From Bacillota bacterium (lineage in GTDB: Bacteria; Bacillota; Clostridia; Acetivibrionales; DUMC01), in assembly GCA_013314855.1 (NCBI GenBank), contig JABUEW010000003.1, positions 1 to 63,122 on the forward strand: a stretch of 63,122 nucleotides of DNA, in the 5' to 3' direction. The notes under the pieces were generated by a model that saw only the letters and a list, made by a program, of their open reading frames with translations, was not told the origin of the DNA and searched no databases. Both the position numbers and the translations under genes were made by a program. Each line of letters begins with the position of its first letter. Position 1 is the stretch's first letter. Positions 26,882-48,758 of this stretch are shown here, one piece after another.

Positions 26882-26929
26882 ACAGGTTTATGCGAATGCT
26901 CTTCAAAATATTTGGAGGGGGTAAATTTG

Positions 26930-29290
26930 ATGATGTTAAAGTCAAAATATTTTTTAAGAATCTTCATATTTTCGAGTATAATAAGTATAATCCCCATTAT
27001 TTTGCTTAGCATATTTTTTTACAATAAAACCTCAGCCGCAATTCAGTCAAAAGTAAATGAGAACAACATGCAAATGTTGATGCAAACTCATTTAAGAATC
27101 GAAAATATGTTGAAAGTAATTGATCATAATTGCATACAGTTGATAAACTCAAGCACCCTCAAGAATTTGGTTGACAAGAATTGGGATCCCAAATATTATA
27201 AAGAGATTGACAATTTAATCAATGAGATGAGCCATTTGCAGGCAAGCGAAGTAAACATTGCCGACGTGATTGTTTTGAATTATGCAAAAAATTGGGCAAT
27301 AAACACTCCGGGATACTATTATTTGGATGAAAGTACCGCATTTGAAGCATATAGAAAGTTTCTGAACACTTCCGAGAATTACATGTGGACAATTAAGGAA
27401 GAGAATTATGAAAGCGTATTGTTCGGTGAAAATGAAACCAGTATGACAACTCAGGTTAGGAAGAAATATTTTATTAACCTTATACGTAAAATTAGAACAG
27501 CTTATAGGACTACAAATGGTTTATTGGTTGCCAAAATACCCCTAAATGAAATTATAAACAACCTAAAAAGCAAGGTAAATACAACTCATAATTTCATTAT
27601 ACTTGATCAAAATAATTATGTAATATGGCATAATGATGAAAGGTATGTAGGAGAAGATTTCAGTTTATCGGATTATGTTAGGAAGATTGATGCGCTAGGG
27701 ACTAAAGAGGGCAATTTCAATATAAAAGTACAAGATAAAAGTTTTGATATTATTTTTATAAAATCAAGCTATAGCGGGTGGTTATATTTCTTTATAACGC
27801 CTTTTAATTATATTGTAAGAGAATCAAAGATTATGGGTCTGTTTACAGCAGCAGTATGTTTTGCAGTTATAGTTTTACTAAGTATAGTTTCGTTTATTGG
27901 TTCCAGAAGAATATATTTTCCTGTAAAACGATTATATGAATTAATTACGGAAAAACCGCGAAATTTAAAAGAAGTAAAAGAAGATACGGACGAATTTAAG
28001 TGCATTAATAATCGTATCCGGGAACTAATGAGCAGCAAAAAGGATTTGACATATAAACTAAAACTGCAGTTTGAACAATTGAAAGAGTATTTTTTGCTAA
28101 AACTTGTTCTCGGCGAAATGAAAATAGAAGAAATTTTAGGCAAAGTCGAATATTTTGATTATTGCCAAAATTGGACCTGGATGTGCGTTGTCACAGTTGA
28201 TATTGATACTCTGGAGGGTACTTCATATACGGAAAAAGATAAAGAGATAGTTCTTTTTACTATTAATAATATTGTAAACGAAATTATGCCTGGCAATAAA
28301 TGCTTAAGTCCCCTGGTTGTCAATTCCTTGCAGGTAACAATTATAGGAACCGAACAAGATTCGAAGATAACATTTATGAACTATGTTTATTCATTGGCGG
28401 AGGCGCTGCAAAAGTCTATTGGAAATTACCTTGGCGTTAAGGTAAGCATAGGCATAAGCAGACCATTTGGCAAATTTGAAAGCGTAAATACAGCATATCA
28501 GGAAAGTATTGAAGCTTTAAAACATAAAATATTGCTTGGGCAGGAAATGATAATTTTTTATGATGATATCAGGAATAATTCAAAACAGGTTCCCGAATAT
28601 CCTGTTCAAATAGAATCGGATTTAATCAATGCATTGCAAGCAGGCGATATACAAAAAGCAAACCATTATCTTAAGCAGTTTATTAATGAAATCTTTGAAA
28701 GCAATTTAAATTACCTGGACTATCAAGTTCGCATAGGAAAGCTTCTAAGCGAGCTTGCATTTATTATAGTCAAAGAGGGAGAATCAATCCAAGCAATATA
28801 TAATAAACAAACTTTTTTGTATGGGAGGCTTGTCGAGTCAAAAACCAGAGAAGAACTTGAAACCTGGCTTAGGCATGAAATTATTGAACCCATTGCCAGG
28901 TTAATTAAAGAAAAAAGATCGGCGCATGGAAAGAAAATATCCGATGAAATAACAAAGATAATTCATAATGAGTTTGATACTGACCTAACGCTTGATATGT
29001 GCGCGAAACGTTTATACTACAGTCCGCAATATGTAAGCAGGGTTTTTTACAATGAGACAGGCATGAGTTTCAGCGAATATTTAAAGCAGTATCGAATTGA
29101 AATAGCAAAGAAATGGCTGGAACAAGGCAACATGAAAATATCCGATATAGCCGAGAGACTAAGATATGCAAATTCACAAAATTTTATTCGCTGTTTTAAG
29201 AAACATGTTGGTTTAACTCCCGGTGAATACCGTGAAAAATGTAAGAAAGCATTAATTGGAAATACAAATAAAGTGGTATATACTGCATGA
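26930..29290 (+). CDS. Membrane-anchored one-component regulator: extracellular sensor + AraC HTH
   Basis: Same architecture as 16761-19061, with C-terminal HTH (CAKRLYYSPQYVSRVFY...). Start moved to ATG 26930 after the RBS ggaggggg. Confidence 0.8.
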   Translation: MMLKSKYFLRIFIFSSIISIIPIILLSIFFYNKTSAAIQSKVNENNMQMLMQTHLRIENMLKVIDHNCIQLINSSTLKNLVDKNWDPKYYKEIDNLINEMSHLQASEVNIADVIVLNYAKNWAINTPGYYYLDESTAFEAYRKFLNTSENYMWTIKEENYESVLFGENETSMTTQVRKKYFINLIRKIRTAYRTTNGLLVAKIPLNEIINNLKSKVNTTHNFIILDQNNYVIWHNDERYVGEDFSLSDYVRKIDALGTKEGNFNIKVQDKSFDIIFIKSSYSGWLYFFITPFNYIVRESKIMGLFTAAVCFAVIVLLSIVSFIGSRRIYFPVKRLYELITEKPRNLKEVKEDTDEFKCINNRIRELMSSKKDLTYKLKLQFEQLKEYFLLKLVLGEMKIEEILGKVEYFDYCQNWTWMCVVTVDIDTLEGTSYTEKDKEIVLFTINNIVNEIMPGNKCLSPLVVNSLQVTIIGTEQDSKITFMNYVYSLAEALQKSIGNYLGVKVSIGISRPFGKFESVNTAYQESIEALKHKILLGQEMIIFYDDIRNNSKQVPEYPVQIESDLINALQAGDIQKANHYLKQFINEIFESNLNYLDYQVRIGKLLSELAFIIVKEGESIQAIYNKQTFLYGRLVESKTREELETWLRHEIIEPIARLIKEKRSAHGKKISDEITKIIHNEFDTDLTLDMCAKRLYYSPQYVSRVFYNETGMSFSEYLKQYRIEIAKKWLEQGNMKISDIAERLRYANSQNFIRCFKKHVGLTPGEYREKCKKALIGNTNKVVYTA

Positions 29291-31977: not shown

Positions 31978-32028
31978 TTACAGTGTTGTTGAAAATAACA
32001 TAAAAATTGTGAAAGGTGGATTTGACGG

Positions 32029-33033: not shown

Positions 33034-33314
33034 AGTATAGGAAAAGCATATGTGCAAGCGAAACAATATGCGTCATGCTCTTTGTAAATTTTACTTTTGT
33101 TTTTATTTTGATTATTTATTTTGTTATTAAATGATTATTTACATATTAAAGTCTTTATGACTAAAATTTAGTTAAGCGAGGTGATTAAAATTGAGATCAT
33201 AGCAGTAGGTAACAATTAAGATCATTCATTTTCGAGCAACTCATTATCAACTACCACCACGAAACAACTAAAAAAGACTAAAAAAGTAAAAATTTTAAAG
33301 GAGGGAATAATTCA

Positions 33315-34853
33315 ATGAAAAGCAATGTAAAGAAGTATTTAAAAGCAGGAACAATTATGCTTATCATCTTATGCCTTGCATCTTTTGTTTTCAATGGCTG
33401 CGTTGTAAAGCAAACCGAAGTGAAGCAAACAGAAGGCGAGGGCAAAACGGTAGAGACAACTGCCGAAGAGCAGAAAAAACCTATCAAAATCACTGTTATG
33501 AGTTCATATGATTCGGCTGAACCTCCAAATGTAGATACGCCTATAGTCTTAGAAATAGAAAAAAGACTTAATGCTGATTTTGATATTAACTGGATACCGA
33601 CAAGCGTATGGGACGAAAGGCTAAATGTTACCTTGGCTTCAGGGGACCTGCCCATGGTATTGTTCGCAAAAAAGACGCCAACCATCATGACGGCTGCCCT
33701 TTCCGGGGCTTTTTGGGAAATAAATCCTTACCTGGATAAATATAATTTCCTGAAAGGAATCCCAAAGGTTACTATCGAGGGAGATTCCATAAAGGGTACT
33801 TATTACGGTATTTCCCGTTTAAGGGATCTTGCCCGTTCATGTGTGACTTACCGAGAAGACTGGCTTGAAGCTCTTGGACTAAAGAAACCGGAAACATTAG
33901 ATGAATTTTATGAAATGCTTAGAGCCTTTGCTCATGACGATCCTGATAAAAATGGTAAGAATGATACTATTGGGTTTTTGGAAGATGGCCGTCTTTGGAT
34001 AGTGGAAGACTTGGCAATATGGCTCGGAGCGCCTAATTTTTACATGGTTACGGAAGATGGGAAATTTATTCCTTCCCATGAAACAAAAGAATATTTGGAA
34101 GCATTAAAATTCATAAAGAGACTTTACGATGAAAAAATCTTAAACGAAGATTTTGCAATTTTGCCGAAATCAAATAGAGACACTTTTATACATAGTGGCA
34201 AGGTCGGAGCGTTTTTTGGTGCTGTCAGCAATTTCAAGGCTGACACAGAAAAGACACGTAAAAACGACCCTAATGCGAAATGGGACGCGATAATAAAACT
34301 TGGATTAAACCGTACCAGGGCTTGGGACGCAGGTTCGCTGGGAATGTATGTGTTTACAAAGAGCGGCATTAAGACGCAGCAAGAGTTGGAACAGGTTTTG
34401 GCCATATTTGATAAGATGATGTCAGACCCGGAAATTGTTACCTTGATTAGCTACGGAATTAAAGACGTCGACTATGTCATAGAAGACGGCTGTATTGTAC
34501 GGAAGTCCGCTAAAATTAACAACGGCAACTTCAATTTACTTGAATGCGGCAAAAAAGTCAAGCTTCAAATACAAGTGAAGAAAGATGAGTCTGATTTAAG
34601 AGCAGAAAAATACCTTGAAGAAAATGAGAAAAATGCTGTTGGTAATCCTGCTTTTCCTTTAACTTCCCAGACCTACTTAGAAAAAGGCGGTGACCTGGAC
34701 CCGCTGAGAAAGGATGCCAAGATAAATTTCATAATGGGAGAAATCGACGAAGCCGGATGGAAAGCATTTTGCGAAAAATGGCGCAAAGAGGGCGGGAATG
34801 ATGTATTGGCAGAATATGAAGCAGAATATGCAGAATACGCAAAAAAGAAATGA
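33315..34853 (+). CDS. Extracellular solute-binding lipoprotein (LplA-like)
   Basis: Signal peptide with lipobox FNGCV, RBS aaaggaggg. Confidence 0.9.
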   Translation: MKSNVKKYLKAGTIMLIILCLASFVFNGCVVKQTEVKQTEGEGKTVETTAEEQKKPIKITVMSSYDSAEPPNVDTPIVLEIEKRLNADFDINWIPTSVWDERLNVTLASGDLPMVLFAKKTPTIMTAALSGAFWEINPYLDKYNFLKGIPKVTIEGDSIKGTYYGISRLRDLARSCVTYREDWLEALGLKKPETLDEFYEMLRAFAHDDPDKNGKNDTIGFLEDGRLWIVEDLAIWLGAPNFYMVTEDGKFIPSHETKEYLEALKFIKRLYDEKILNEDFAILPKSNRDTFIHSGKVGAFFGAVSNFKADTEKTRKNDPNAKWDAIIKLGLNRTRAWDAGSLGMYVFTKSGIKTQQELEQVLAIFDKMMSDPEIVTLISYGIKDVDYVIEDGCIVRKSAKINNGNFNLLECGKKVKLQIQVKKDESDLRAEKYLEENEKNAVGNPAFPLTSQTYLEKGGDLDPLRKDAKINFIMGEIDEAGWKAFCEKWRKEGGNDVLAEYEAEYAEYAKKK

Positions 34854-34949
34854 AACTAAGTCAAGTTAAGTCAAGCTAATTTAAGTTAAAGCGAGTGGCA
34901 AGTAATTCATTTAATAGAGCTTTAAGGAATTAAATTAAATAATGGGCTG

Positions 34950-34994
34950 CGGCAGGAATGGACGGCAAAGATAATGTGTTGTTTATTCCTGCCG
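34950..34994 (+). terminator. Stem-loop after the SBP gene (intra-operon)
   Basis: cggcaggaat / attcctgccg is a perfect 10-bp stem with a 25-nt loop. There is no T-run. Confidence 0.4.
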
Positions 34995-35158
34995 AACCTG
35001 ATGTTATAATATTGCAATAAAGAGACAAATGAGGAGAAAAATAAGGACGAATAATTAATAATTGTAGTTTTAAGTTAAGTGTTGTATTAGGTGCGTGTAT
35101 TATATGGTTGCAAGGAGAGAGCTTTTATATTTATGCGCAACGGAGGTGAAGTGCTTCT

Positions 35159-36100
35159 ATGGAGTTAGCCGGGTACAAAAATTCAACTTTAAGGCGGAGC
35201 AAAAACATAGGTCGCATTTTAAGACGGCCATGGCTGTATATACTTATGATACCGGGAATAATACATATAATTATTTTCGAATACATCCCTATATGGGGAT
35301 TAGCATTAGCTTTTAAAGACTACAATCCTGTTTTGGGGTTTTTTAACAGCCCCTGGGTGGGATTAAAGCATTTTTACAGGTTCTTCAGTGTTTCTTCGTT
35401 TTATATATTGTTTAGAAATACACTGGCATTTTTTGCGCTCAGCTTAATATTTTATTTCCCGATACCCATATTCCTCGCATTAATGTTAAATGAACTGAAA
35501 AATATTTACTTCAAGAGGACAATTCAAACAATTGTTTATCTCCCCCATTTTTTGTCATGGGTCGTAATAATGAGTATAACCTATGTCTTTTTTACTCCTG
35601 CAGGGGGAGTAATACCGAACTTGCTCGCTTCCATGGGGATGGGAAAGGTAAACATACTGATGAACCCAAAATATTTCAGGGCTATGATAGTAGGCCAGCA
35701 AATATGGAAAGAAGCAGGATGGGGTACAATAATATTTTTGGCTGCAATTACCGGAATATCAGTTGAATTGTACGAATCAGCAATTATTGATGGCGCTACC
35801 AGATGGCAGCAGGCAAGATACATTACCATTCCTTCCATAAGTAGGCTAATCGTGATAATTTTAATCTTAAGACTTGGAAATATACTGAGTGTTGGACATA
35901 CACAATTAATACTGATGATGACGCCGCCGACAAGAGACGTAGGAGAAGTGTTTGATACCTATATTTACCGTAATGGAATACAAATGGGATTATTCAGTTA
36001 TACAACAGCGGTCGGTTTGTTTAAAATGGTGGTAGGGGCTGTAATGGTAGGTTTATCCCATTCATTGGCTAAAAAAGTAAGGGGAGAAGGGCTCTTTTAA
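35159..36100 (+). CDS. CUT1-family sugar ABC permease (LplB-like)
   Basis: YESAIIDGATRWQQARYITIP EAA loop. RBS ggaggtg 9 nt upstream. Confidence 0.85.
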   Translation: MELAGYKNSTLRRSKNIGRILRRPWLYILMIPGIIHIIIFEYIPIWGLALAFKDYNPVLGFFNSPWVGLKHFYRFFSVSSFYILFRNTLAFFALSLIFYFPIPIFLALMLNELKNIYFKRTIQTIVYLPHFLSWVVIMSITYVFFTPAGGVIPNLLASMGMGKVNILMNPKYFRAMIVGQQIWKEAGWGTIIFLAAITGISVELYESAIIDGATRWQQARYITIPSISRLIVIILILRLGNILSVGHTQLILMMTPPTRDVGEVFDTYIYRNGIQMGLFSYTTAVGLFKMVVGAVMVGLSHSLAKKVRGEGLF

Positions 36101-36131
36101 AAATACTGGTGGGGGGAGTGTTTATTTTTAT

Positions 36132-37025
36132 ATGGCGATTTATAAAAAATCACTGGGCGAAAAGGTTTTTGATATTTTTAATATAGCAATTTTAACTATT
36201 TATGCTTTAGCATGTGCGATACCTTTCATCCATGTATTAAGCGGATCATTTACTGCCGGTCACCTCATTACTGGGAAGGAAATTATATTGATACCCAAGA
36301 AATTTACACTTGAAAATTATAGATTTGCCTTCACCGTAGGCCCAATTTTAATGGGTTTGAAATCATCCCTGATTTTAACTGTATTCGGAACTATGTTCGA
36401 ACTGGCAGGACCGATCAGCATGGCTTATCCGCTTGCGCACAAGGATTTGGTGGGCAGAAATTTTATTACCTGGATGATAATAATTGCAATGTTTACCAGC
36501 GGGGGCTTGATTCCTACTTATTTATTAATAAGGGCATTGGGGTTGCTGAATACGTATTGGGCATTGTTTATTCCGCAAGCCGTAGGCATTACCAATATAA
36601 TATACTTTAGAAATTTTTTCAGCAACATTCCAAAGGAGATTGAGGAATCGGCATTGCTGGACGGCGCCAACGACCTTTATATTCTTGTAAAAATAATCCT
36701 TCCGCTGTCGGTACCTGTAATTGCGACTTTTACGCTTTTTATAGCAGTTGGTAATTGGAATGCATTTTTTGGGCCATTGATATATTTAAATGATTATAAA
36801 AAGTGGCCTATCCAGGTGATATTGCGGCAAATCACTCTCACGGCGCAGATAATGACTGATACAGGCTACAGCGCGTATTCCGGGTATGCGGAAGATGAAA
36901 TGCCTACGCCCGAAGCGGTAAAATTGGCAGTAATTATAATTGCCACGGGGCCGATAATTCTTTTGTATCCCTTACTGCAGAAACATTTTGTAAAAGGTAT
37001 TATAGTTGGCTCATTAAAAGGATAA
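36132..37025 (+). CDS. CUT1-family sugar ABC permease (LplC-like)
   Basis: ESALLDGANDLYILVKIILP EAA loop. C-terminus YPLLQKHFVKGIIVGSLKG. Confidence 0.85.
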   Translation: MAIYKKSLGEKVFDIFNIAILTIYALACAIPFIHVLSGSFTAGHLITGKEIILIPKKFTLENYRFAFTVGPILMGLKSSLILTVFGTMFELAGPISMAYPLAHKDLVGRNFITWMIIIAMFTSGGLIPTYLLIRALGLLNTYWALFIPQAVGITNIIYFRNFFSNIPKEIEESALLDGANDLYILVKIILPLSVPVIATFTLFIAVGNWNAFFGPLIYLNDYKKWPIQVILRQITLTAQIMTDTGYSAYSGYAEDEMPTPEAVKLAVIIIATGPIILLYPLLQKHFVKGIIVGSLKG

Positions 37026-37082
37026 GTTGGGTTCAGGAAGTTTTAATTTTAATAAGTGCAGTTTTAAAAGGAGGACGAAAAA

Positions 37083-38087
37083 ATGGGCAAGGCAAAAATT
37101 ATAAGTCCGTACCTAAAGGATGGGCTATGGGTGAAGGCAAATTTCCATGTCCACCCGGCGCCTATTTCAAATAAAACAGGGTATTGCGATTCAACTATTA
37201 TCAGGGAATACATCAAAGCCGAATATAGTTGCATTTCGTTGGTTGGGAATAATGAGATTTATACTCTTGACGCAAACAGCGAAGATAATGGCATGTTAAT
37301 TAGCGAAGCTAAAGGTACATTAAATAGTAGTGAGATGTTAAATGAAATTATAATCATCCCGGGATTTGAAAGCACTGGAGTTATCCCAGCAGTGGTTATA
37401 AATTCCTTGAGTTTCGATAATGGCGAAATCAAAAATGAAGATGATTTGCAGACGCTAATATATGAACAAATCAAAAATGGTGGAATTGTCTTTTTTTCTC
37501 AGCCTATGAGGTATTATGATATGGAAGAAAGATTTAAGCTTCTTTTAAACCTCGATGGTTATTTGGGCATTGAAGTGCTAAATGGCAACCTTGCTTTTGG
37601 CAGTTTCAAGGGAATTGGAGGGAATAATGCAAATTACAATGACGCGAATTATAATAAAGGCAATGAAATAGAGCTTTGGGACCGCCTGTTGAGCAGCGGC
37701 AAAAAAGTCTGGGGCTTTGGAAACGACGGGTTAGAAAAATGGAGTGAATTTAATACGGTATTTAATCTGGTAAAATTGCAAAAAGGTAGTTCGGTAAATG
37801 CGGGTAGAATTATAGGAGCTTTAATTGTGGGAAGTTTTGCAGTGTCTACTGGGGTAAGAATCAAGGATATTTCAGTTGAGGAGAATGAGATAAAATTGGC
37901 AGTGTATAATAGTCATGAAAACAAAATGTATATTGCATACGGGGAATACGGCAGGATACTAAAAACTTGCTATACAAAAGAGGATATTTTTGTTTATGAA
38001 CCGGAAGGCGATGAGGGATATGTAAGGATGCAGGTAATATATGAGAGCGGCAAAACGCTTTTGACTCAACCTTTTTTTATTGAGTAA
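37083..38087 (+). CDS. PHP-fold-like protein, type A (ligand-degenerate paralogue)
   Basis: Homologous to the next gene over its full length (shared ...GFGNDG..., C-terminus ESGKTLLTQPFFIE). It keeps HVH and the PGFE Glu, but has VGNNE, SQPM and NDGLEKW where type B has SEHD, AHPHW and NDDFH. Confidence 0.6.
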   Translation: MGKAKIISPYLKDGLWVKANFHVHPAPISNKTGYCDSTIIREYIKAEYSCISLVGNNEIYTLDANSEDNGMLISEAKGTLNSSEMLNEIIIIPGFESTGVIPAVVINSLSFDNGEIKNEDDLQTLIYEQIKNGGIVFFSQPMRYYDMEERFKLLLNLDGYLGIEVLNGNLAFGSFKGIGGNNANYNDANYNKGNEIELWDRLLSSGKKVWGFGNDGLEKWSEFNTVFNLVKLQKGSSVNAGRIIGALIVGSFAVSTGVRIKDISVEENEIKLAVYNSHENKMYIAYGEYGRILKTCYTKEDIFVYEPEGDEGYVRMQVIYESGKTLLTQPFFIE

Positions 38088-38117
38088 TTGTTATTGAGAT
38101 TCAAGGAGATGGATACA

Positions 38118-39032
38118 ATGAGTATAATTATTGATAATCCGTACATAGAAGAAGGCAAATGGTATAAAGGTTCATTTCATAACCACAGCAAAAATTTTAG
38201 CGTTGATGAGTGTATATATTCGATGATTGAGGCAGGCTGCGATTTTTTGACAATGTCTGAGCACGACCAAAACAAGATGGAATGCATGAATTTTGCCGAT
38301 AAAGTAGTTGTAATTCCGGGCTTTGAACAGAGCAGGGGGCAGAATCCCCATGTTGTAGTTGTAAACGCATGGCACAAGGAAGCAAGACATGTTGTAACTA
38401 AAAAAGATTTTCAGGATTTCATAAATGAGCAAGCCAAAGAAGGCGCTGTTGTAATAATGGCGCATCCGCACTGGCAAAGAGAAGATTATTGGCCTAAAGG
38501 TTATCTTGAGGAGCTGAACGGCTATATTGGTATAGAAATACTTAATTCCTCGTTAATTTTCAGCAAAGCGCGATTCGATGGCGAGCATGATTATTGGGAT
38601 ATAGCCGTAGATGTCTGGGATAGGCTCCTTAGCAACGGAAAAGTGGTATGGGGTTTTGGGAATGACGATTTTCACAACATGAAAGAATTTAATAAGAGTT
38701 ATAATATTGTAAAGGCGGAGAAATTATCTAGAGAAGGCATAGTCGAGGCTGTAAAACGTGGAAGCTTTGTTGTTACTGCAGGCGCAGATATTGAAGATGT
38801 ATTTGTTGATAAGGATACGAATGAAATAAGCATTCGGGTTAAAAGCGGATGTCAAGAGAAAAAGATTTATTCGGCAATAGGGAAACACGGGAAAATACTC
38901 AAAAGAGTTTTTACTGTTGATAATTATTTCAGTTATAAACCAAGCGGTTTTGAAGGCTACGTAAGAATACACGCACTTTTTGAAAGCGGCAAAGCTCTTT
39001 TTACGCAGCCGTTCTTTATAAGAGAAAACTAG
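38118..39032 (+). CDS. PHP-fold metal-dependent phosphoesterase-like protein, type B (full ligand set)
   Basis: FHNHS (HxH), MSEHD, PGFEQS, MAHPHW and GNDDFH match the canonical PHP-domain metal-ligand order. Start moved to ATG 38118 (RBS aaggag), which matches the paralogue's N-terminus MSII. Confidence 0.65.
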   Translation: MSIIIDNPYIEEGKWYKGSFHNHSKNFSVDECIYSMIEAGCDFLTMSEHDQNKMECMNFADKVVVIPGFEQSRGQNPHVVVVNAWHKEARHVVTKKDFQDFINEQAKEGAVVIMAHPHWQREDYWPKGYLEELNGYIGIEILNSSLIFSKARFDGEHDYWDIAVDVWDRLLSNGKVVWGFGNDDFHNMKEFNKSYNIVKAEKLSREGIVEAVKRGSFVVTAGADIEDVFVDKDTNEISIRVKSGCQEKKIYSAIGKHGKILKRVFTVDNYFSYKPSGFEGYVRIHALFESGKALFTQPFFIREN

Positions 39033-39139
39033 TTTGATATGCTCAATTTATATATTTTACTATTTGCATATTAGTCTTGAACAATAGAAGAATTAGTGCT
39101 TTAATTAATTCGTATATACTTTATGGTGGAGGGATACTG

Positions 39140-40159
39140 GTGAAAAAAGCAGTATTTATGCTGAAACAGAACAACAAGGAACAAAGCAGAAAATTGATAG
39201 AAAGGGTATATACCCCTGAAAGCATAGGCAAAATAAGCAAATATGCCGAAATATACCCTGAAATTGTTGGCAAGGGAAACTTTGAGGAGCACAAGGAGTA
39301 TCTTAAGAATGTGGAGGTTGTATTTTCAACCTGGGGTATGCCAACGTTGTCGGAAAAAGAAATTGAAGAATACCTTCCCATGCTCAAAGTGGTGTTTTAT
39401 GCTGCAGGCAGTGTCCAGCGCTTTGCCCGTCCTTTCCTTAACAGGGGCATAACTGTAGTAAGCGCCTGGGCTGCAAATGCAGTGCCGGTTGCAGAGTATA
39501 CGCTATCACAAATCCTGCTGGCAAACAAAGGTTTTTTTCAGAATGCTGCTATAACAAAAAAAGATTATTGTTCAGCGAGAAAGTACTCGGAGATGTTTCC
39601 GGGCAATTATAACGTAAAGGTGGGAATACTGGGGGCAGGGATGATAGGGACAAAGGTTATAGAACTTTTAAAGCCTTTCAATATTGAGGTGCTGGTATAC
39701 GATCCCTTTCTTTCCGATGAGAGGGCAAACCAGCTGGGAGTAAAGAAATGCAGTCTGGCGGAGGTTTTTTCACAATGCCAGACGATATCAAACCACATAG
39801 CGAATCTTCCGGCTACGGTGGGATTGCTTAATAAGGAACATTTCAGCAAAATGCTTCCTAATGCTACATTTATAAATACAGGAAGGGGAGCGCAAGTAGT
39901 GGAAAAAGATTTAATAGATGCGCTGAAGGAAGTACCGACAAGAACAGCCGTGCTCGACGTGACCAATCCTGAGCCGTTGCCTTGCGACAGCGAGCTTCTT
40001 AAAATGGAGAACGTGATTTTGACATCCCATATAGCCGGCAGCATGGGCAAGGAAGTTGAAAGGATGGGATGCTACATGGCAGAAGAATTTTTGCGTTATA
40101 TTGAGGGTAAAGAGCTGAAGTATAATGTAACATTAAAAATGCTGGAAACAATGGCATAA
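39140..40159 (+). CDS. D-isomer-specific 2-hydroxyacid dehydrogenase family (glycerate/hydroxypyruvate-reductase-like)
   Basis: NAD-binding motif GILGAGMIGTKV, and catalytic-region motifs NTGRG...LDV...P...ILTSHIAG. Start placed at GTG 39140 after ggtggaggg. The ORF-track TTG 39077 is an alternative. Confidence 0.8.
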   Translation: MKKAVFMLKQNNKEQSRKLIERVYTPESIGKISKYAEIYPEIVGKGNFEEHKEYLKNVEVVFSTWGMPTLSEKEIEEYLPMLKVVFYAAGSVQRFARPFLNRGITVVSAWAANAVPVAEYTLSQILLANKGFFQNAAITKKDYCSARKYSEMFPGNYNVKVGILGAGMIGTKVIELLKPFNIEVLVYDPFLSDERANQLGVKKCSLAEVFSQCQTISNHIANLPATVGLLNKEHFSKMLPNATFINTGRGAQVVEKDLIDALKEVPTRTAVLDVTNPEPLPCDSELLKMENVILTSHIAGSMGKEVERMGCYMAEEFLRYIEGKELKYNVTLKMLETMA

Positions 40160-40195
40160 AATAAAAAGTGTTTCACATTATCCAAAGAAAAAACA

Positions 40196-40288
40196 ATAGT
40201 ACATATCGTTTGCGACAATGTCCCGATGCATCATGGAAAACAGGTGCAGGAATGGCTAAAAAGCCATCCTCGGTTTGTATTTCATTAA
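40196..40288 (+). pseudogene. IS630/Tc1-mariner-family transposase fragment (~30 codons)
   Basis: IVHIVCDNVPMHHGKQVQEWLKSHPRFVFH* matches the block around the second catalytic Asp of IS630-type DDE transposases. Confidence 0.5.
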
Positions 40289-40441
40289 ATTGAAATGGCA
40301 GCTACAGAAGCTGAAGGAATATCACCTGTGAATTACCAGATGGCAGCTATTGTTCTAGTTGCTTTGCCTATAGTATCAATATATCCGTTTGTTCAGAAGT
40401 ATTTTGTTAAAGGAATACTTGTGGGTTCAGTAAAGGGTTGA
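40289..40441 (+). pseudogene. 3' remnant of an LplC-like ABC permease gene
   Basis: ...NYQMAAIVLVALPIVSIYPFVQKYFVKGILVGSVKG* aligns with the C-termini of the three intact LplC-like genes. It directly abuts the IS630 fragment. Confidence 0.65.
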
Positions 40442-40671
40442 TTTCATATAAAGACTTGTAAAAGCAAGAACATTTATTATGTTATTCAGGAGGTGGTTTA
40501 ATGGCTAGAAATGCTTGAATATTATCAGGAAAAGCATTATAGTGGTATTAAAGAAGTCCTTAGATATTTTATAGGATATATATGTATTTTATAGGATATA
40601 TATGATTGTTCCTGTAGTTAGGATTTGGATTTATAAATCGAAGTATAAATTTATAAGTGGAGGTATACAAA

Positions 40672-42867
40672 ATGAGCTGGGATGCAAGGTTTGGGTTTTT
40701 CTGGTATAATGATGAGGAAATTTTTAAATTTAGCCAGGAGGATTTTGATAAAAAGGCTAAAAAATTTGCAGATGCTGGAATAAACATAGTTATTACTTTT
40801 AGCTGCACTCATTTCAGATGGACTATGCGTCCATATTGGGATAAGATTGGAAGATGCCTTGAACAAATAGTAAAAGCCTGCCACAAGTATAATATTAAAG
40901 TTGTAGAGCACCATAGTTCACATTTAACCTTCGATCCTTTAAACAGTGAAGACTGGGACTATATGGAGAGAGTTCTGAATAAAAGGCAAAGTAGTATTAA
41001 CTCATGGGAAGGTATACGGGATTACCTGGCTGAAGACCCCATAATAGATGGTGAACCTCTTTCATCATTCAGACAGATAGACGGTAGAACAGGAAAATGG
41101 GCCCGCTCAAGCTACCACGGCTATGCAATGTGTTTCAATAATCCTAATTACAGGAAAGCTTATTTTTCATATTTGGAGGATGTCTACAAGACCGGTATTG
41201 ACGGCATAATGACTGATGATGTCCAGTGGTTTGGCGATGGTAATGCATGTGCATGCCAATACTGTAGAAAGTTATTTAAGGAACAGACTGGATATGAGCT
41301 CCCACAACCTGGTGAGGCATGGTATAAATTCTATGGTGATTATGATAACCCTATTTATATAGCATGGGAGAAATTCAGAAGAAAATCCACAGCGGATTTT
41401 CAGTATGAGGTAAATAAACACTTTAAAAGTCTGGGACTTAATCTTTTAAGGCCTAACTACGTTTCTCATGCGCTAATGAGCAACCCTACAGGATACCCAT
41501 TTGATGCAGCAGCATCAATCTGGGACTATGTTTTCCAGGAAAACTGCTATTCAAGTATAATAAGGTACTCATGGCCTGCTTTTGCAATGGAAGCGGTACA
41601 CAGGTATGCTCTTGGAGAAAGGAATAATGTGCCTTCAATGTCAATGTTCTATCCCGACAGAGAGGATTCAATGTATTTTGCATGGGCACTTTCAAGAAGT
41701 TGGGGACAAATGTTCTTAGCTACACCAGAAGGTATGGACTTGAGTCATGCGGAAAAGAAATTCAGGGATTTTGAAAAAAAACATTTCTGTATACTTGATA
41801 ACCTAAAAAAACATGCTGATATAGCTTTCTATTTTTCTATAAAAACCCGGGATTATATAAAAGATTCTCAAAAAAATAATATGAGTGTACTCTATTCATG
41901 GATGCAAAGTGCATATTTCAAAAATCATTCTATAGATATAGTATTTGAATATGATGATATCAAAAAACTTATGGAGTATCCGGTAATTATTGTACCCAAT
42001 GTTTCAATGATGAGTAAAGAAGAGATAAATAACCTGAGAATTTTTGCAGAAGAGAGTGGAAAGCTTTTGATTATTGGAATTCCTGGCCTAAGGGATGAGA
42101 ACGGTATTAAAAGAGATATTGATGAAATCTTAAGTTTTCTTGGAATTTCTGGTGATATCTCACTATATAAACTTAATGAAGAGAGAATAGAGGATTGTGT
42201 TTATAAGTATAATGGTATTGAGTTAAATTTAAGTAACATTAAGTGCAACTATATAATTAATCGTGGGCAACAGACAAATGCTGTAATGACAACTTCAGAC
42301 GGCAGTACTATAGGAATTTGTAGTAAGGTAGGAAAGGGTGAAATAATGTGGCTTGTTAATTCTTTCGGGAATGAAAAGCATCAACCTGAAATACGTGCTG
42401 ACAGATGGTTTAAGCATGAGATAAGAGTGAATTCTCCGGAATATGTAGTAGATGAACTAAAAAGAATACCGGGTGAAATAATTGACAGTTTAGTTGAAAA
42501 TAAATTACTGAATATTATCGACTGTCCCGAAGGCTTAATAGCTACTTGTTTCATGGATGAAAACACTTCCAGATATATTATTCATCTTGTAAATACTGAA
42601 GGAACTCTACCTAAAGATTCTTGTGATGTAGGGCATAGTGATATAGTTCCAGCGTTTACAGGAAGCTCAGAGTATACAATAGCAAGAGATTTAATTATTG
42701 AATTGAGAAAAGACGCAAATACAAAAGTTGATTCTGTAAAGCTTTATACTCCTGAAAGGAATTACTTTAAGAAAATTGAGTTTACTTATGGAAATGGTAA
42801 AATACTAATTAATATCCCAGGCAAGTTCTTTAAAGGTTATGCAATTATCGAGATCAAGCTTGCATAG
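40672..42867 (+). CDS. GH42-like TIM-barrel protein with a putative trimerisation-like middle domain
   Basis: CFNNPNYRKAY...GIDGIMTDDVQWF...CACQYCRKLF parallels the GH42 block C.N.P.YR...DNEY...C.C..C..F. The downstream region (PVIIVPNVSMMSKEE...) resembles the GH42 middle domain. ATG 40672 follows the RBS gtggaggt. Confidence 0.45.
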   Translation: MSWDARFGFFWYNDEEIFKFSQEDFDKKAKKFADAGINIVITFSCTHFRWTMRPYWDKIGRCLEQIVKACHKYNIKVVEHHSSHLTFDPLNSEDWDYMERVLNKRQSSINSWEGIRDYLAEDPIIDGEPLSSFRQIDGRTGKWARSSYHGYAMCFNNPNYRKAYFSYLEDVYKTGIDGIMTDDVQWFGDGNACACQYCRKLFKEQTGYELPQPGEAWYKFYGDYDNPIYIAWEKFRRKSTADFQYEVNKHFKSLGLNLLRPNYVSHALMSNPTGYPFDAAASIWDYVFQENCYSSIIRYSWPAFAMEAVHRYALGERNNVPSMSMFYPDREDSMYFAWALSRSWGQMFLATPEGMDLSHAEKKFRDFEKKHFCILDNLKKHADIAFYFSIKTRDYIKDSQKNNMSVLYSWMQSAYFKNHSIDIVFEYDDIKKLMEYPVIIVPNVSMMSKEEINNLRIFAEESGKLLIIGIPGLRDENGIKRDIDEILSFLGISGDISLYKLNEERIEDCVYKYNGIELNLSNIKCNYIINRGQQTNAVMTTSDGSTIGICSKVGKGEIMWLVNSFGNEKHQPEIRADRWFKHEIRVNSPEYVVDELKRIPGEIIDSLVENKLLNIIDCPEGLIATCFMDENTSRYIIHLVNTEGTLPKDSCDVGHSDIVPAFTGSSEYTIARDLIIELRKDANTKVDSVKLYTPERNYFKKIEFTYGNGKILINIPGKFFKGYAIIEIKLA

Positions 42868-42933
42868 AACTGCCAATGAGGAAAAGAGTAATGAGATATA
42901 GGCTTTTAAATATTTGTACAGGGAGGTATAAAA

Positions 42934-43722
42934 ATGAAGGTATTGATAATGACAGACCTTGAAGGTATAAGTGGAGTAAATACTATGGAAATGGTTTCAG
43001 AAGAGGGAACACCTGGGCATAAGTTTGCACTTGAGCGTCTTATGTTTGATGTGAATGCAGCTGTAGATGGTGCTTTTGAAGGTGGTGCTGTTGCTGTTTA
43101 TATTAGAGATGGCCACGGTGGTGGAAAAAATTTTATTAAGGAAATGCTAGACCCGCGTGCAGTAGAGGTAGATAGTACAGGCTGGCAGGAGATAATAAAA
43201 AGTGGTGAAATCAATGCATTTATGTTAATAGGTGCGCATGCTATGGCAGGAACAATTAACGGTTTTTTGGATCATACGCAGAGTTCAAAAGCGTGGTATA
43301 ATTATATAGTTAATGGACGTAAATGCGGAGAAATAGCGCAAGGAGCTATATTTGTCGGAGCTTTTGATGTGCCTTTTGTCATGGTCAGCGGTGATCAGGC
43401 TGCCTGTGTTGAAGCTAGATCTTTCCTTGGTGATATTGAATGTGCAGTGGTTAAATATGGTATTGGAAGAAACTATGCTCGATTGGTTGAACTAGATGAT
43501 GCTCTTACAAGAATTAAGAAAGCTGCTAAAGATAGCCTAAAGCTTATAGGTAAAGTTAAACCATATAAACCTTTACTACCACTGGAAATTAAGCTTGAGT
43601 TATATCGTTCGGATATGTGTGATGAATTGATGAAAAAATACGATAATATTGAGCGTCTTGACGCTCGAACCGTACGAAAACTTGTATACAAAGTGGAGAA
43701 TTATAGAGATATTTTATTTTGA
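42934..43722 (+). CDS. Peptidase M55 (DppA-type D-aminopeptidase) family
   Basis: MKVLIMTDLEGISGV, RDGHGGG, GAHAMAGT...LDHT and FVMVSGDQAACVEA follow the B. subtilis DppA pattern. Confidence 0.75.
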   Translation: MKVLIMTDLEGISGVNTMEMVSEEGTPGHKFALERLMFDVNAAVDGAFEGGAVAVYIRDGHGGGKNFIKEMLDPRAVEVDSTGWQEIIKSGEINAFMLIGAHAMAGTINGFLDHTQSSKAWYNYIVNGRKCGEIAQGAIFVGAFDVPFVMVSGDQAACVEARSFLGDIECAVVKYGIGRNYARLVELDDALTRIKKAAKDSLKLIGKVKPYKPLLPLEIKLELYRSDMCDELMKKYDNIERLDARTVRKLVYKVENYRDILF

Positions 43723-43776
43723 AACTCATATTTCGTTAACATATAAGGAGTTGAGGTCAGACACCTTAACGATGAT

Positions 43777-43897
43777 GTTATGGTGACACTTGACTTAAAC
43801 GTATGGTTAAAATTTATGTAATATTATTATATAATTAGATAAAATTAACAATATAGGCACTATTAATAGGATAAAAATAAAATTTTTATGATTCAAC
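43777..43897. repeat. Copy C of the AT-rich dispersed repeat
   Basis: gacttaaacgtatggttaaaatttatgtaatattattatataattagataaaatta... is collinear with copy A (1-127). Confidence 0.6.
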
Positions 43898-43946
43898 AGG
43901 AAGAATAACTTGTTTGAGCCGATATTGCTAACGCCGGATGAATTGA

Positions 43947-44144
43947 TGGGGAGGGATAATTATAGCGTATAGAGATCCGATTGTTGAAGAAGTCTGGAAG
44001 TCAAGAGAGCAGTTGTTGGAACAGCATGGCGGTCTGGAAGGATTTCTTGAGTATATCAAGAAGCAGGAGCAGGAACACCCGGAGAGACTGGTTGACCCAA
44101 AGCAGGTTAAGAACGTAAAGGACAATAATAGAATTGCATTGTGA
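43947..44144 (+). pseudogene. Small ORF without a canonical start (antitoxin-like/hypothetical remnant)
   Basis: Open frame WGGIIIAYRDPIVEEVWKSREQLLEQHGGLEGFLEYIKKQEQEHPERLVDPKQV... opens directly after a TGA. A strong ggggaggg lies at its 5' end but there is no ATG/GTG/TTG. Confidence 0.25.
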
Positions 44145-44996: not shown

Positions 44997-46049
44997 ATGG
45001 GAAGAATAAGAATAAAAAGCCCGTATTTTGGAGAAGGCAAATGGGTGAAAGCGAACCTTCATGTTCATCCGACGCCTGTTTCGGAAGATACCGGGTATTT
45101 TGGTGATAGGATTATTATAGAATATATAAAGGCAGGATATGATGTTGTTTCGTTGACCGGATGGGGGAATGTGTATTTGTGTAGCAATTCCGGGGATGAA
45201 AAAAACGGCATGCAGAATATTGTACTGGTTCCCGGGTTTGAAAAAAAAGCTGATATGCCAATGGTTGTATTAAATTCAATGAAAACCGGCGTTGACAGAT
45301 TTGATCATGAAGAAAATGAAAAAGAAAATGAAACCAATAATAAAGAGCATGAAGCGGATAATAGCGGAAAAGATAGTAACAGGGGAAAAGATATACAAAA
45401 AGCGCAGGAGTTTATTGATAGTCAAAATAAGGCCGGAGGGCTTGTTTTTTTTGTACAGCCGATGGAATTAAGCGGGTTGCAAGAAAAATTGGAATATCTT
45501 AAAAATCTTGATGGTTATGTGGGGATAGAAATCCTAAACGGGAATATTGCTTTTGGGAACGGCTCTAAAATAGATAAAGAACAGGGCAAAAAATTTAGAG
45601 AATATTGTTCTTCCGGTATTGAAATTGCTCTCTGGGACAGTTTGCTTGATAGTGGAAAAAAGATCTGGGGATTTGGGAATGATGGACTGCAAAAATGGGG
45701 AGAATTCAATTCGGTGTTTAACCTGGTGAAATTGCGTGGAGGCCGTTCAATATCTCCCGGAGGGGTTATAAACGCCCTGACGAAAGGGAGTTTTGCCGTG
45801 TCTACAGGGGTCAGAATCAAGGATATTGCGGTAGATGAAGATAAAAACACTATAAGCCTGATGGTGGACAATAAATTTGAAAATAAAACGTACATTGCAT
45901 ACGGAAAAGAAAGAAGAATACTGAAAATGTGCTGCACAAAAGAAGATGTTTTCTCTTACAGTCCTGAAGGTAATGAAGGATATGTAAGAATGCAGGTAAT
46001 TTATGAAAGCGGCAAAACACTTCTAACCCAGCCTTTTTTCATTGAATGA
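44997..46049 (+). CDS. PHP-fold-like protein, type A (second copy)
   Basis: Collinear with 37083-38087 (MGRIRIKSPYFGEGKWVKANLHVHP...; identical C-terminus YVRMQVIYESGKTLLTQPFFIE). It has the same missing His ligands, plus an inserted E/N/K-rich segment. Confidence 0.6.
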   Translation: MGRIRIKSPYFGEGKWVKANLHVHPTPVSEDTGYFGDRIIIEYIKAGYDVVSLTGWGNVYLCSNSGDEKNGMQNIVLVPGFEKKADMPMVVLNSMKTGVDRFDHEENEKENETNNKEHEADNSGKDSNRGKDIQKAQEFIDSQNKAGGLVFFVQPMELSGLQEKLEYLKNLDGYVGIEILNGNIAFGNGSKIDKEQGKKFREYCSSGIEIALWDSLLDSGKKIWGFGNDGLQKWGEFNSVFNLVKLRGGRSISPGGVINALTKGSFAVSTGVRIKDIAVDEDKNTISLMVDNKFENKTYIAYGKERRILKMCCTKEDVFSYSPEGNEGYVRMQVIYESGKTLLTQPFFIE

Positions 46050-46099: not shown

Positions 46100-46960
46100 T
46101 TGAACAGTTGCAACGGGAAAAAGATTGGCATTAGCTTTGGCAACAGGGTAAGTATTGAGGAACTGCCCGGAGCTCTCAAACTTGCGGCAAAATACGATAT
46201 TGATTGCATTGAATTGACACCGGAGTTGGGACCTGTATTGATAGGAGGTTCATTAAACTTGAAGGTGTTGAAAACCATAAAATCCATACTTTCCGATTTC
46301 CCATTCGGTTATACTGTCCATTGCCCGGGCATGCAGAATATGAGGGATTTAAACAACCTGGAAATGCAGCATGATATATTCAGAGCAGGGCTTGATTTTA
46401 CAAAGGAAATAGGAGGTATGGTATATGTAGCACATTTTTCCCAAAAATCGGAAGATGAGAGCGTAGAAAAGGTATTCGAAGAAGGCATGGCTAAAATGGC
46501 GGATTATGCAGGGAAAGTGGGCGTTGTAATAGGTGTTGAAAACATAGAAATAGAGCGTGTAGAGCCTGTCTTGAGTCTTATCAGGAGAATTAACCACAAG
46601 AATTTGCAAATGACCTTTGATTTTGCACACTCTTTTCTGGCTTCAAAGTACTATGGTTACGATTTCATGGAATCCGTAAAGCAGGCAAAGCCGTATATAA
46701 AACACGTGCATATTCATGATAATATCGGGTTGTATGATCCTGACAGGCTTGTAAACAAGCAGCGTTCATTGAAGGAAAGGCTGACAGTAGGGAGAGGCGA
46801 CCTGCATCTTCCCATAGGATGGGGTTTAATACCTTATGATAAAGTGTTTGATGTGCTGAAAGATAGTTATAACGGAGTTTACATGCTGGAAAATGATGTT
46901 GGACAGAATGAAATGTTTATAGAAGATACGCTGAAAACTTTAAAAGAGTTGATATATTGA
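46100..46960 (+). CDS. Sugar phosphate isomerase/epimerase-like TIM-barrel protein
   Basis: ...YVAHF..., GVENIE, FDFAHSF, HVHIHDN and YMLEN follow the AP_endonuc_2 metal-ligand pattern. TTG start after aaggggg. Confidence 0.7.
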   Translation: MNSCNGKKIGISFGNRVSIEELPGALKLAAKYDIDCIELTPELGPVLIGGSLNLKVLKTIKSILSDFPFGYTVHCPGMQNMRDLNNLEMQHDIFRAGLDFTKEIGGMVYVAHFSQKSEDESVEKVFEEGMAKMADYAGKVGVVIGVENIEIERVEPVLSLIRRINHKNLQMTFDFAHSFLASKYYGYDFMESVKQAKPYIKHVHIHDNIGLYDPDRLVNKQRSLKERLTVGRGDLHLPIGWGLIPYDKVFDVLKDSYNGVYMLENDVGQNEMFIEDTLKTLKELIY

Positions 46961-47039: not shown

Positions 47040-47951
47040 ATGAGTATTATTGCTATTGACAATCCGTATATTGAAAAAGGCCAATGGTATAAGGGGTCGT
47101 TCCATAACCACAGCGAGATTTTCAGCGTCGGGGAGTGTATATGCTCCATGATTGAGGCAGGGTGCGATTTTCTTACAATGTCCGAGCATGACCAAAATAA
47201 GCCGGAGTGTATGGATTTTGCGGATAAAGTAGTTGTAATACCGGGTTTTGAACAAAGCACGGGGCCGAATCCCCATGTTGTTGTCGCAAATACATGGCAC
47301 AAAGGAAGAAGGTATACCGTAACGAAGAAAGACTATCAAGATTTCATAAATGAACTGAATAGTGAGAATGCCATTATAATAATGGCGCATCCTCACTGGC
47401 AAAGAGAGGATTACTGGCCTGAAGGCTATCTCGAGGAATTATACGGTTATACCGGTGTGGAAATACTTAATTCGTCAATAATATTTGACAAGGCCCATAT
47501 TGACGGTGAGTATGATTATTGGGATATTGCCGTCGATGTATGGGATAAATTGCTAAGCAGCGGAAAAGTTGTATGGGGATTCGGGAATGACGATTTTCAT
47601 CACAGAAAAGAATTTAATAAAAGTTATAATATTGTCAAGGCGGAAAGGCTGAGCAGGGAAAGTATAGTTGAATCGGTAAAAAGAGGGAGTTTTGTTGTTT
47701 CAACCGGCGCATGCATTGAAGATATATTTGTTGATGACAATGAAATAAATATACTGCTTAAAAGCAGCATACAGGAGAGAAAAATATATTCGGCCATTGG
47801 AAAGAATGGGAGGCTGCTGAAAAAAGCGTTTACAACGGAAAACCGCTTTAGTTACAGGCCGGATGGAACTGAAAGCTATGTGCGGCTGCACGTGCTTTTT
47901 GAAAGCGGGAAAGCCCTGTTTACACAGCCGTTTTTTATAAGGAGTTGTTAA
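47040..47951 (+). CDS. PHP-fold metal-dependent phosphoesterase-like protein, type B (second copy)
   Basis: About three-quarters identical by eye to 38118-39032. FHNHS, MSEHD, PGFEQS, MAHPHW and GNDDFH are all retained. Confidence 0.65.
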   Translation: MSIIAIDNPYIEKGQWYKGSFHNHSEIFSVGECICSMIEAGCDFLTMSEHDQNKPECMDFADKVVVIPGFEQSTGPNPHVVVANTWHKGRRYTVTKKDYQDFINELNSENAIIIMAHPHWQREDYWPEGYLEELYGYTGVEILNSSIIFDKAHIDGEYDYWDIAVDVWDKLLSSGKVVWGFGNDDFHHRKEFNKSYNIVKAERLSRESIVESVKRGSFVVSTGACIEDIFVDDNEINILLKSSIQERKIYSAIGKNGRLLKKAFTTENRFSYRPDGTESYVRLHVLFESGKALFTQPFFIRSC

Positions 47952-47966
47952 AGGAGGGTGCTGGTT

Positions 47967-48758
47967 ATGAAGTATTCGGCTTGTATTGAAATGCTATTTA
48001 CGGAATATGAATTTACCGAAAGGATTAGAAAAGCAAAAGAGTGCGGATTTGAGTATTTTGAATTCTGGACGTGGAAGGACAAAAATTTGCCTCGCATTAA
48101 AGATGCCATAGAAGAATCGAAGATTAAAGTGGCAAGTTTTTCGGGCGATGACGAGTTTTCCATGGTAAATAGGGAAGAAAATGCTGAATATGTCAAGTTT
48201 GTTGAAAAGTCAATAGAAGCTGCAAAATCATTAAATTGCAATTACCTGGTGATTCATTCCAATGCCTTGGAAAAAGACGGTTCGGCTAAAGAGGTGCATG
48301 GAGTTGCTTCAAAAGAAGCAATGCTTATTAATATGTATGAAGTACTAAAGCAATTAAAACCCATAGCTGAGCGGGAAAGAATATGCCTTGTCCTTGAACC
48401 GTTAAATAGTATTGTTGATCATAAGAATTACTTCCTGGATACGCCGGAAGAGGCTTTTGAATTGATTAAGGCAGTAGATTCCGAGTATATAAAAGTACTG
48501 TATGATATATACCATATGCAGATAATGAGAGGAAATATAATTGATATAATTGTAAAAAACATAGAAAATATAGGATACATACACGTGGCAGATGTGCCGG
48601 GAAGGCATGAACCTGGTACAGGTGAACTAGCATTTAATAATATATTTAAAGCTGTTAAAGATTGCGGTTATCAAGGTATTATAGGTTTTGAACTATGTCC
48701 TGTAGATTGTTCTAGAACAGCAATTGATAAGATTATGGAAGTAATACAGAGAAGGTAA
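47967..48758 (+). CDS. Hydroxypyruvate isomerase (Hyi)/OtnI-like TIM-barrel protein
   Basis: MKYSACIEMLFTEYEF...GFEYFEFW is a typical Hyi-family N-terminus, with VLEPLN... and HVADVPGRHEPGTGE downstream. Start at ATG 47967 after aaggagg. Confidence 0.75.
   Translation: MKYSACIEMLFTEYEFTERIRKAKECGFEYFEFWTWKDKNLPRIKDAIEESKIKVASFSGDDEFSMVNREENAEYVKFVEKSIEAAKSLNCNYLVIHSNALEKDGSAKEVHGVASKEAMLINMYEVLKQLKPIAERERICLVLEPLNSIVDHKNYFLDTPEEAFELIKAVDSEYIKVLYDIYHMQIMRGNIIDIIVKNIENIGYIHVADVPGRHEPGTGELAFNNIFKAVKDCGYQGIIGFELCPVDCSRTAIDKIMEVIQRR

Follow-up and report, generated by a model that had tools for sequence, protein, structure and literature searches.

We examined a stretch of 63,122 nucleotides from the genome of a Bacillota bacterium (GenBank assembly GCA_013314855.1, contig JABUEW010000003.1, positions 1 to 63,122; hereafter the window) that contains two adjacent genes predicted to encode related proteins with a PHP fold. 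The first gene, which we call A1 (37083..38087, plus strand), was delimited from its open reading frame (ORF) and a strong ribosome-binding site ahead of its start, AAAGGAGG. It is predicted to encode a protein 334 aa long that a comparison of metal ligands marks as a degenerate member of the fold. The second gene, B1 (38118..39032, plus strand), is predicted to encode a ligand-bearing PHP-fold hydrolase of 304 aa. The ORF called mechanically for B1 opens earlier, at TTG 38088; the start is likely to be the ATG at 38118 because an AAGGAG site lies 9 nt 5' of it and because the N-termini of all homologues agree with this position. The spacer between A1 and B1 is therefore 30 nt. The two proteins are 35% identical over their full length (BLASTP, E = 6e-57), so their paralogy is far beyond chance. 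An earlier note on this DNA, written from the letters alone, had described two homologous neighbors that share the C-terminal motif ESGK(T/A)L(L/F)TQPFFI, and we found both the pair, on one strand, and the motif as described. A1 contains an insertion of approximately 20 residues after the second strand that is modeled with low confidence. Direct reading of the A and B proteins revealed no signal-peptide-like N-terminus.

There is a second A/B set in the window at 44997-48758, 6 kb downstream of the first, which the earlier note did not cover. It includes a second degenerate paralogue, A2 (44997..46049, plus strand, 350 aa), and a second ligand-bearing paralogue, B2 (47040..47951, plus strand, 303 aa), that is 78% identical to B1. 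Residues ~99-133 of A2 (45291-45395) are a low-complexity insertion, HEENEKENETNNKEHEADNSGKDSNRGKD, of some 30-35 residues with a high content of Glu, Asn, and Lys. This insertion is found in no other family member and differs from the one in A1.

None of A1, B1, A2, and B2 matched the Pfam PHP family (PF02811) even at E <= 1, nor did they match any other Pfam family. In NCBIfam, their best hidden Markov model (HMM) match was NF038032, the CehA/McbA family, which is named after carbaryl and oxamyl hydrolases. The scores were 73.0 bits for B1, 68.6 for B2, 25.4 for A2, and 20.3 for A1, all below the 80-bit cutoff. Thus, the suggestion in the earlier note that CehA/McbA enzymes are the nearest family that can be named was correct, whereas the Pfam search proposed there gave nothing and the NCBIfam match is a top match below its threshold. 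The B proteins align only to profile positions 1 to ~220-225 of 315, so the C-terminal part of B differs from that of the NF038032 proteins. NF038032 was also the top match for all 123 relatives examined (best E-value 2.9e-36), and their secondary HMM matches were to pAp phosphatase, RNase RNM, and PolX. No characterised family with a known substrate matched A or B in Pfam, NCBIfam, or the PDB, in line with the earlier note, which had recognised no characterised PHP family of this layout.

A phmmer search of the PDB with B1 returned only a marginal match to 3e38, so the relationship to solved PHP structures is visible only with a profile. A family profile built from 25 relatives matched 2ANU (TM0559; E = 1e-12) and 3E38 (E = 2e-9), and also RNase AM and the pAp phosphatase 2YB1. 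We then used the alignment of 123 sequences to build AlphaFold2 monomer models of A1 (predicted local distance difference test score, pLDDT, 89.7; predicted template modeling score, pTM, 0.90) and B1 (pLDDT 95.2; pTM 0.93). Both models are confident and show a beta/alpha barrel with an all-beta domain C-terminal to it. Comparison with the PDB by Foldseek placed B1 closest to 3E38 (E = 4e-12), then to 2ANU (E = 1.5e-10) and RNase AM, and A1 closest to 2ANU (E = 1.7e-7); 7ug9, 9etk, and 2yb1 were also among the matches of the models. The C-terminal domain, which is highly conserved in A, matched Ig-like beta-sandwiches. The models and profile matches together predict that A and B each comprise a PHP superfamily barrel and a C-terminal Ig-like beta-sandwich, in agreement with the fold first proposed for them. 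A profile search of 1.84 billion representatives found 16,955 matches to this two-domain family at E <= 1e-3 and 1,600 at E <= 1e-30; the roughly 1,600 family clusters are representatives at 50% identity. To our knowledge, this CehA/McbA, 3E38, and TM0559-like branch is essentially without an assigned physiological substrate, xenobiotic hydrolases aside.

In trinuclear relatives, the alpha metal is held by an HxH pair and the Asp of DxH, the beta metal by a His about seven residues after a bridging Glu and by the His of an 'HP' motif, and the gamma metal by the Asp of an HxHxxxSD loop, the 'DHD' His, and the His of DxH (PMC11656708, on No-PDE and 3E38). Eight of these nine ligands can be aligned across the family, with the consensus string HHHEHHDH, and all eight are present in 108 of the 123 aligned members. 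B1, B2, and their orthologues have all eight (motifs FHNHS, SEHD, PGFE, AHPHW, and NDDFH), which makes eight of the nine canonical ligands. By contrast, A (motifs FHVHP, VGNNE, PGFE, SQPM, and NDGLEKW) has lost five of the eight, or five to six across the A lineage. A1 keeps H22, H24, and E96, three of the nine canonical ligands, and has lost a gamma His (N56), both beta His (A103 and Q140), the alpha Asp (G216), and a second gamma His (E218). Neither the beta nor the gamma site is thus left in A, and of the three alpha ligands it has only two. On this alignment, B is a near-canonical and A a degenerate member of the PHP superfamily, with the full trinuclear set in neither.

The earlier note had read the ligand series of B as complete and had credited A with the HVH, Glu, and Asp ligands and the loss of three His. 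All of the motifs that it quoted for B are present, but the gamma Asp is missing. For A, the HVH and Glu stood, but a fourth His is also lost, namely the beta-metal His that is the NPH His of B, and the Asp that is kept is not a ligand. This Asp (D215) stands before the true ligand position, where each of the six A sequences has Gly. The actual ligand, the second Asp in the DxH motif NDDFH, aligns with NSDFH of TM0559 and with D260/H262 of No-PDE.

The pattern of loss in A is shared by its relatives. The ligand strings are HHNEPQGE for A1, HHWEPQGQ for A2, HHNEPQGL and HHNKPQGK for two further members of the A lineage (P0002 and P0004), and THSEHHGC for its basal member, P0005; the A gene on a metagenomic contig (L007) has the pattern of A1. 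Of H22, H24, and E96, P0004 and P0005 each keep two, with the changes E96K and H22T, respectively. The residues that replace ligands are also conserved: G216 and W220 occur in all six A sequences and QPM in five of the six. The His substitutions that the earlier note had seen in A therefore hold for every known orthologue. These conservation statistics rest on six sequences because three wider searches for A-type proteins (in genomes, in metagenomes, and with an A profile) added little, returning one metagenome-assembled genome (MAG) that was already known and one new 1.8-kb metagenome contig.

To examine the origin of A and B, we built a bootstrapped neighbor-joining tree of 50 family members. 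The A clade, A with P0005, the B clade, and A and B together each received 100% bootstrap support, which indicates that A and B arose from a single duplication within a small lineage. P0005 is half-degenerate, keeping the beta-site His but not the alpha and gamma ligands, and its residues at these sites suggest a stage of evolution intermediate between B and A. Branches leading to A (0.70-0.80 substitutions per site) are about 1.6 times longer than those leading to B (0.39-0.49); overall, we put the rate of A at about 1.6-2 times that of B. A was the fastest-evolving gene of the operon in both comparisons available. Between the window and the orthologous locus of a Clostridiaceae MAG (L001), A is 63% identical, versus 71% for B, 82% for a GH38 protein, 81% for a conserved 334-aa protein, 79% for a solute-binding protein, 91% for a permease, and 75% for a dehydrogenase. 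Between the second set of the window and a syntenic metagenome locus (L003), A is 49% identical versus 71-75% for the neighboring genes. Within the window, A1 and A2 are 57% identical versus 78% for B1 and B2, and their nonsynonymous divergence (dN) is 0.34 versus 0.14. We considered gene conversion between B1 and B2 as a cause of this difference and rejected it, finding no tract of high identity.

Despite its faster rate, A is under purifying selection. In the one comparison in which synonymous sites were not saturated (L001 with L007), synonymous divergence (dS) was 0.90 and dN 0.12, giving a dN/dS ratio (omega) of 0.14; in the saturated comparisons omega was at most 0.2, and the overall range was 0.09-0.20. 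A thus shows what is expected of a dead paralogue: paralogy with an active copy, conserved loss of ligands, purifying selection, and co-inheritance with B.

Members of the A/B lineage are extremely scarce. In 5.8 billion protein clusters, our searches found only five A-lineage and five B-lineage clusters, and no B-lineage protein without an A, or A without a B, turned up there. One of 185,579 species-representative genomes, a Clostridiaceae MAG, contains the lineage. A and B lie in one operon at all five loci that could be assessed. The first set of the window has the order GH38, 334-aa protein, solute-binding protein, two permeases, A, B, and dehydrogenase, and L001 has the same genes but in the order A, dehydrogenase, B. 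The second set of the window has the order A, TIM barrel, B, TIM barrel, and L003 has an AraC regulator, a solute-binding protein, and two permeases followed by A, TIM barrel, B, TIM barrel. The fifth, L004/L005, begins with GH38 and contains P0005 (A-like), a B-like gene, a third ligand-complete PHP gene, and a Metallophos gene. The pairing on which the earlier note relied was thus borne out for the operon, which is shared at every locus and lies near CUT1-type importers and GH38 or TIM-barrel genes, but not for direct adjacency.

Directly upstream of A1 in the window, and in the same orientation, is a CUT1-type ATP-binding cassette (ABC) importer (33315..37025) made up of a solute-binding protein (33315-34853) and two permeases (35159-36100 and 36132-37025). 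Downstream of B1 on the plus strand is a gene predicted to encode a D-isomer-specific 2-hydroxyacid dehydrogenase (39140..40159; Pfam 2-Hacid_dh_C, E = 6.5e-45), the counterpart of which sits between A and B in L001. This is the glycan-import context that had been noticed before. At the head of the operon and syntenic with L001 are genes on the plus strand for a GH38 alpha-mannosidase (29287-31977) and for the conserved 334-aa protein (32029-33033), which has no assigned function. A large AraC-type regulator gene (26912..29290, plus strand) overlaps the GH38 start by 4 nt at its 3' end and is a candidate regulator of the locus. In the second set, a xylose-isomerase-like TIM-barrel gene lies between A2 and B2 (46100..46960, plus strand; Pfam AP_endonuc_2, E = 2.2e-30); it has weak matches to CbiR, IolO, and an epimerase and is 75% identical to the gene in L003. 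Next after B2, as in L003, comes another TIM-barrel gene (47958..48758, plus strand), which resembles hydroxypyruvate isomerase and 2-oxo-tetronate isomerase genes. L003 has its own transporter, whereas the window shows none that belongs to the second set.

The neighboring genes gave few clues to the substrate. PDB sequence searches with GH38 matched only generic alpha-mannosidases, and the same searches with the 334-aa and a 736-aa neighbor protein gave no clue to the substrate. We also considered mannosylglycerate catabolism, for which GH38, a glycerate-type dehydrogenase, and a hydroxypyruvate-isomerase-like TIM barrel could be enlisted. This reading was not adopted because all of the HMM matches were far below their cutoffs. 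An Rfam scan of the whole window found no match. A scan for promoters and terminators across 31900-51000 gave numbers not far from those in shuffled sequence (18 terminator-like sites versus 11.5 expected) and did not resolve the operon boundaries.

More distant, ligand-complete relatives also adjoin CUT1 or other ABC importers. Among their neighbors are genes for GDPD, Metallophos, a PI-PLC-X-like protein, and PfkB kinases, as well as GH2, GH4, and GH29 glycosidases, URO-D-like proteins, and AP_endonuc_2 TIM barrels. Judging from these predicted gene products, glycoside import combined with phosphoester handling is a recurring theme around the family.

Based on these results, we propose that B is a cytoplasmic phosphoesterase acting on a phosphorylated derivative of an imported mannoside and that A is its non-catalytic partner, an explanation to which we give about an even chance of being right. 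B1 and B2 would be cytoplasmic metal-dependent PHP hydrolases of the CehA/McbA, 3E38, and TM0559-like branch, with a (beta/alpha)7 barrel and an Ig-like beta-sandwich. A glycoside would enter through the adjacent CUT1 transporter and be trimmed by the GH38 mannosidase, and B would act on a product of this glycoside that is phosphorylated or on a component of it that is linked by a phosphodiester. The chemistry would most likely be phosphoester hydrolysis, with alpha and beta metals, bridged by the Glu, activating a water and a weakened gamma site helping the leaving group. A1 and A2 derive from duplication of the same ancestral gene as B, followed by loss of the beta and gamma sites and of one alpha ligand. 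With these ligands gone, A is not expected to carry out canonical PHP chemistry, and since it is under purifying selection and always in the operon of B, the most likely role for it is that of a non-catalytic partner. Within a hetero-oligomer with B, it could be the subunit that provides a scaffold, specificity, or activation.

Among known systems, the biochemically characterised PHP enzymes that we retrieved are all phosphoesterases. The best structural match of B1, 3E38 (BVU_3505 from Bacteroides vulgatus), also combines a PHP barrel with a beta-sandwich, and its trinuclear ligands map one-to-one onto B with the exception of the gamma Asp; however, sequence identity is only ~18% and 3E38 is itself uncharacterised. 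[quoted passage not shown] TM0559 from Thermotoga maritima (2ANU), a predicted PHP phosphoesterase that is the best match of A1 and the second-best of B1, differs in being a single-domain protein of 255 aa that keeps its ligands; its function is not assigned. The CehA/McbA proteins share with B the PHP-type barrel and the ligand series HxH, H, E, H, H, DxH, but are larger xenobiotic hydrolases, and the gene context here gives no hint of a carbamate substrate.

For A, the clearest precedent for a 'dead' PHP fold is the PHP domain of E. coli DNA polymerase III alpha, which has lost several metal ligands and has a structural or binding role (PMC3666897). It belongs to a polymerase with unrelated biology and is not a free-standing paralogue that accompanies an active copy. 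Our working model for the action of A on B is the AdoMetDC of Trypanosoma brucei, an active enzyme with a conserved inactive duplicate, the prozyme, for which heterodimerisation and activation by the dead paralogue are proven (PMC5201418). The fold and the organisms are unrelated to ours, and A and B are known here from sequence and monomer models. A stricter form of the proposal is that the PHP hydrolase is an obligate hetero-oligomer of A and B, with a metal-free A providing substrate recognition or activation toward a phosphorylated mannoside. The substrate could then be a phosphoglycan or a glycerophospho- or inositol-phospho-glycoside imported by a CUT1 system into anaerobic Clostridia, and this would be the first 'prozyme'-type case among PHP and amidohydrolase-like proteins. 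We put this form forward only tentatively.

Several observations weigh against a partnership of a catalytic B with a non-catalytic A. A and B are directly adjacent at only two of the five loci, with a dehydrogenase or TIM-barrel gene between them at the other three. Tandem paralogues that all carry ligands recur in the family (P0012 and P0019 at a locus that we call L008, and the third PHP gene in L004), so paralogues in one operon may act on different substrates. The ligand that B lacks, the gamma-metal Asp of the HxHxxxSD loop, is present in 76 of 122 members, and the loop is shortened in B. The namesakes of the family, CehA and McbA, hydrolyse carbamates, so the phosphoester chemistry of B is not certain. 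Lastly, all six A sequences keep the family-invariant polar residues H24, E164, N167, D200, and D215, so A may have a changed catalytic or binding site.

These polar residues lead to the alternative that survives best, namely that A is a neofunctionalised enzyme or ligand-binding protein independent of B, for example a mononuclear-metal or metal-free barrel for another pathway intermediate, in the way that paralogues sharing an operon often take on consecutive steps. Former ligand positions in A hold conserved new residues (Q140, M142, G216, and K219/W220), which suggests a remodeled pocket under selection rather than drift, and omega is ~0.14. Independence would also fit the frequent presence of another gene between A and B and the two or three ligand-complete paralogues per operon found elsewhere in the family. 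On the other hand, the remaining ligands are not strictly kept, as the changes in P0004 and P0005 show, A has never been found without B, and it is the fastest-evolving gene of the operon. Taking these points together, we consider an independent A possible but somewhat unlikely.

Rather improbable, in our judgment, is that B, and the pair with it, is not a phosphoesterase and, like the namesakes CehA and McbA, instead breaks a C-N or C-O linkage of the imported glycoside by hydrolysis of a carbamate, amide, or ester. Every member has NF038032 as its best family match, and the window operon contains a DppA-like M55 peptidase gene and no kinase or obvious phosphate-handling gene. However, B scores below the NF038032 cutoff and covers only positions 1-220 of the profile, the structural neighbors and secondary HMM matches are all phosphoesterases, and relatives adjoin GDPD and Metallophos genes. 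We reject a decaying pseudogene for A on the omega values and the conserved replacement residues, and it is very improbable that A is a redundant duplicate persisting as an expressed but functionless relic: the loss of five to six of eight ligands, a rate above that of B, and variable loop insertions (including the low-complexity insert of A2) would fit, but there are six intact full-length A genes on six different contigs or loci with strong ribosome-binding sites and common substitutions, omega is 0.09-0.20, the C-terminal domain is highly conserved, and the AlphaFold2 model is confident.

Overall, A is a rare and probably non-catalytic paralogue, a pseudoenzyme from a part of the PHP superfamily that is uncharacterised, rather than a new kind of system. 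The lineage is a natural experiment in that an active copy, a ligand-less sister, and the half-degenerate P0005 all occur in sugar-catabolic operons. If A is a required partner of B, then the PHP fold joins the enzyme families that are regulated by dead paralogues, and the annotation of A-type genes as 'phosphoesterase' calls for caution. If A is merely an independent binding protein, it is a modest example of pseudoenzyme evolution. Once known, the substrate of B would explain what a gene that recurs as an accessory in CUT1 glycoside-import loci does.

Some of the loci contain additional features. In L004 (10001-14091; JGI 3300065779) and L005, P0005, the B-type copy, and a third canonical PHP gene with an SDG loop lie in a row, and the calcineurin-like Metallophos gene comes after these three paralogues. 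In L008 (4673-8095; GCA_963986415.1), the ligand-bearing paralogues P0019 and P0012 lie on either side of a URO-D-like gene, and the locus also holds genes for GDPD, a TIM barrel, an amidohydrolase, and ABC permeases. In L001 (53-2760), the GH38 orthologue is split between two ORFs (685 and 219 aa) that overlap, which indicates a frameshift or an assembly error; GH38 is intact in the window (896 aa).

Within the window, a stretch of ~36-49 codons, depending on the query, lies between the dehydrogenase and 736-aa genes (40292-40438) and matches the C-terminal end of the second ABC permease in tblastn searches, with 45-53% identity to the permeases of L001, L003, and L004. This is probably a pseudogene remnant of a rearrangement; the order of A, B, and the dehydrogenase beside it also differs from that in L001. 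The ~1.27 kb between the M55 (DppA-like) gene and A2 (43723-44996) contain no long ORF, no significant Pfam match, and no Rfam match. A 56-codon ORF in this stretch (44784-44954), LGLIGAGRIGKLHAENI, resembles the N-terminal Rossmann motif of a Gfo/Idh/MocA oxidoreductase and may be a truncated gene where two operon modules join.

Upstream of the A/B region there are three other loci of note. At 3686-8921, a CUT1 ABC locus with two permeases and a solute-binding protein lies downstream of a response-regulator and histidine-kinase pair and ends with an endonuclease/exonuclease/phosphatase-family gene (7170-8030) followed by a gene with a metallo-beta-lactamase fold (8055-8921). Here, too, putative phosphoesterases accompany a sugar importer, for the second time in this genome. 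The minus strand at 9478-12402 has a fragment of an IS66-family transposase (9478-10164) together with two genes for tyrosine recombinases (10358-11212 and 11179-12402). GC skew reverses locally in this region, which is probably a mobile-element insertion between catabolic loci. Lastly, a gene at 24336-26018 that comes after a Gfo/Idh/MocA oxidoreductase gene in a third ABC locus is predicted to encode a 560-aa fusion of a xylose-isomerase-like TIM barrel and a KduI/IolB-family domain, an unusual combination that is suggestive of inositol or uronate-type catabolism.

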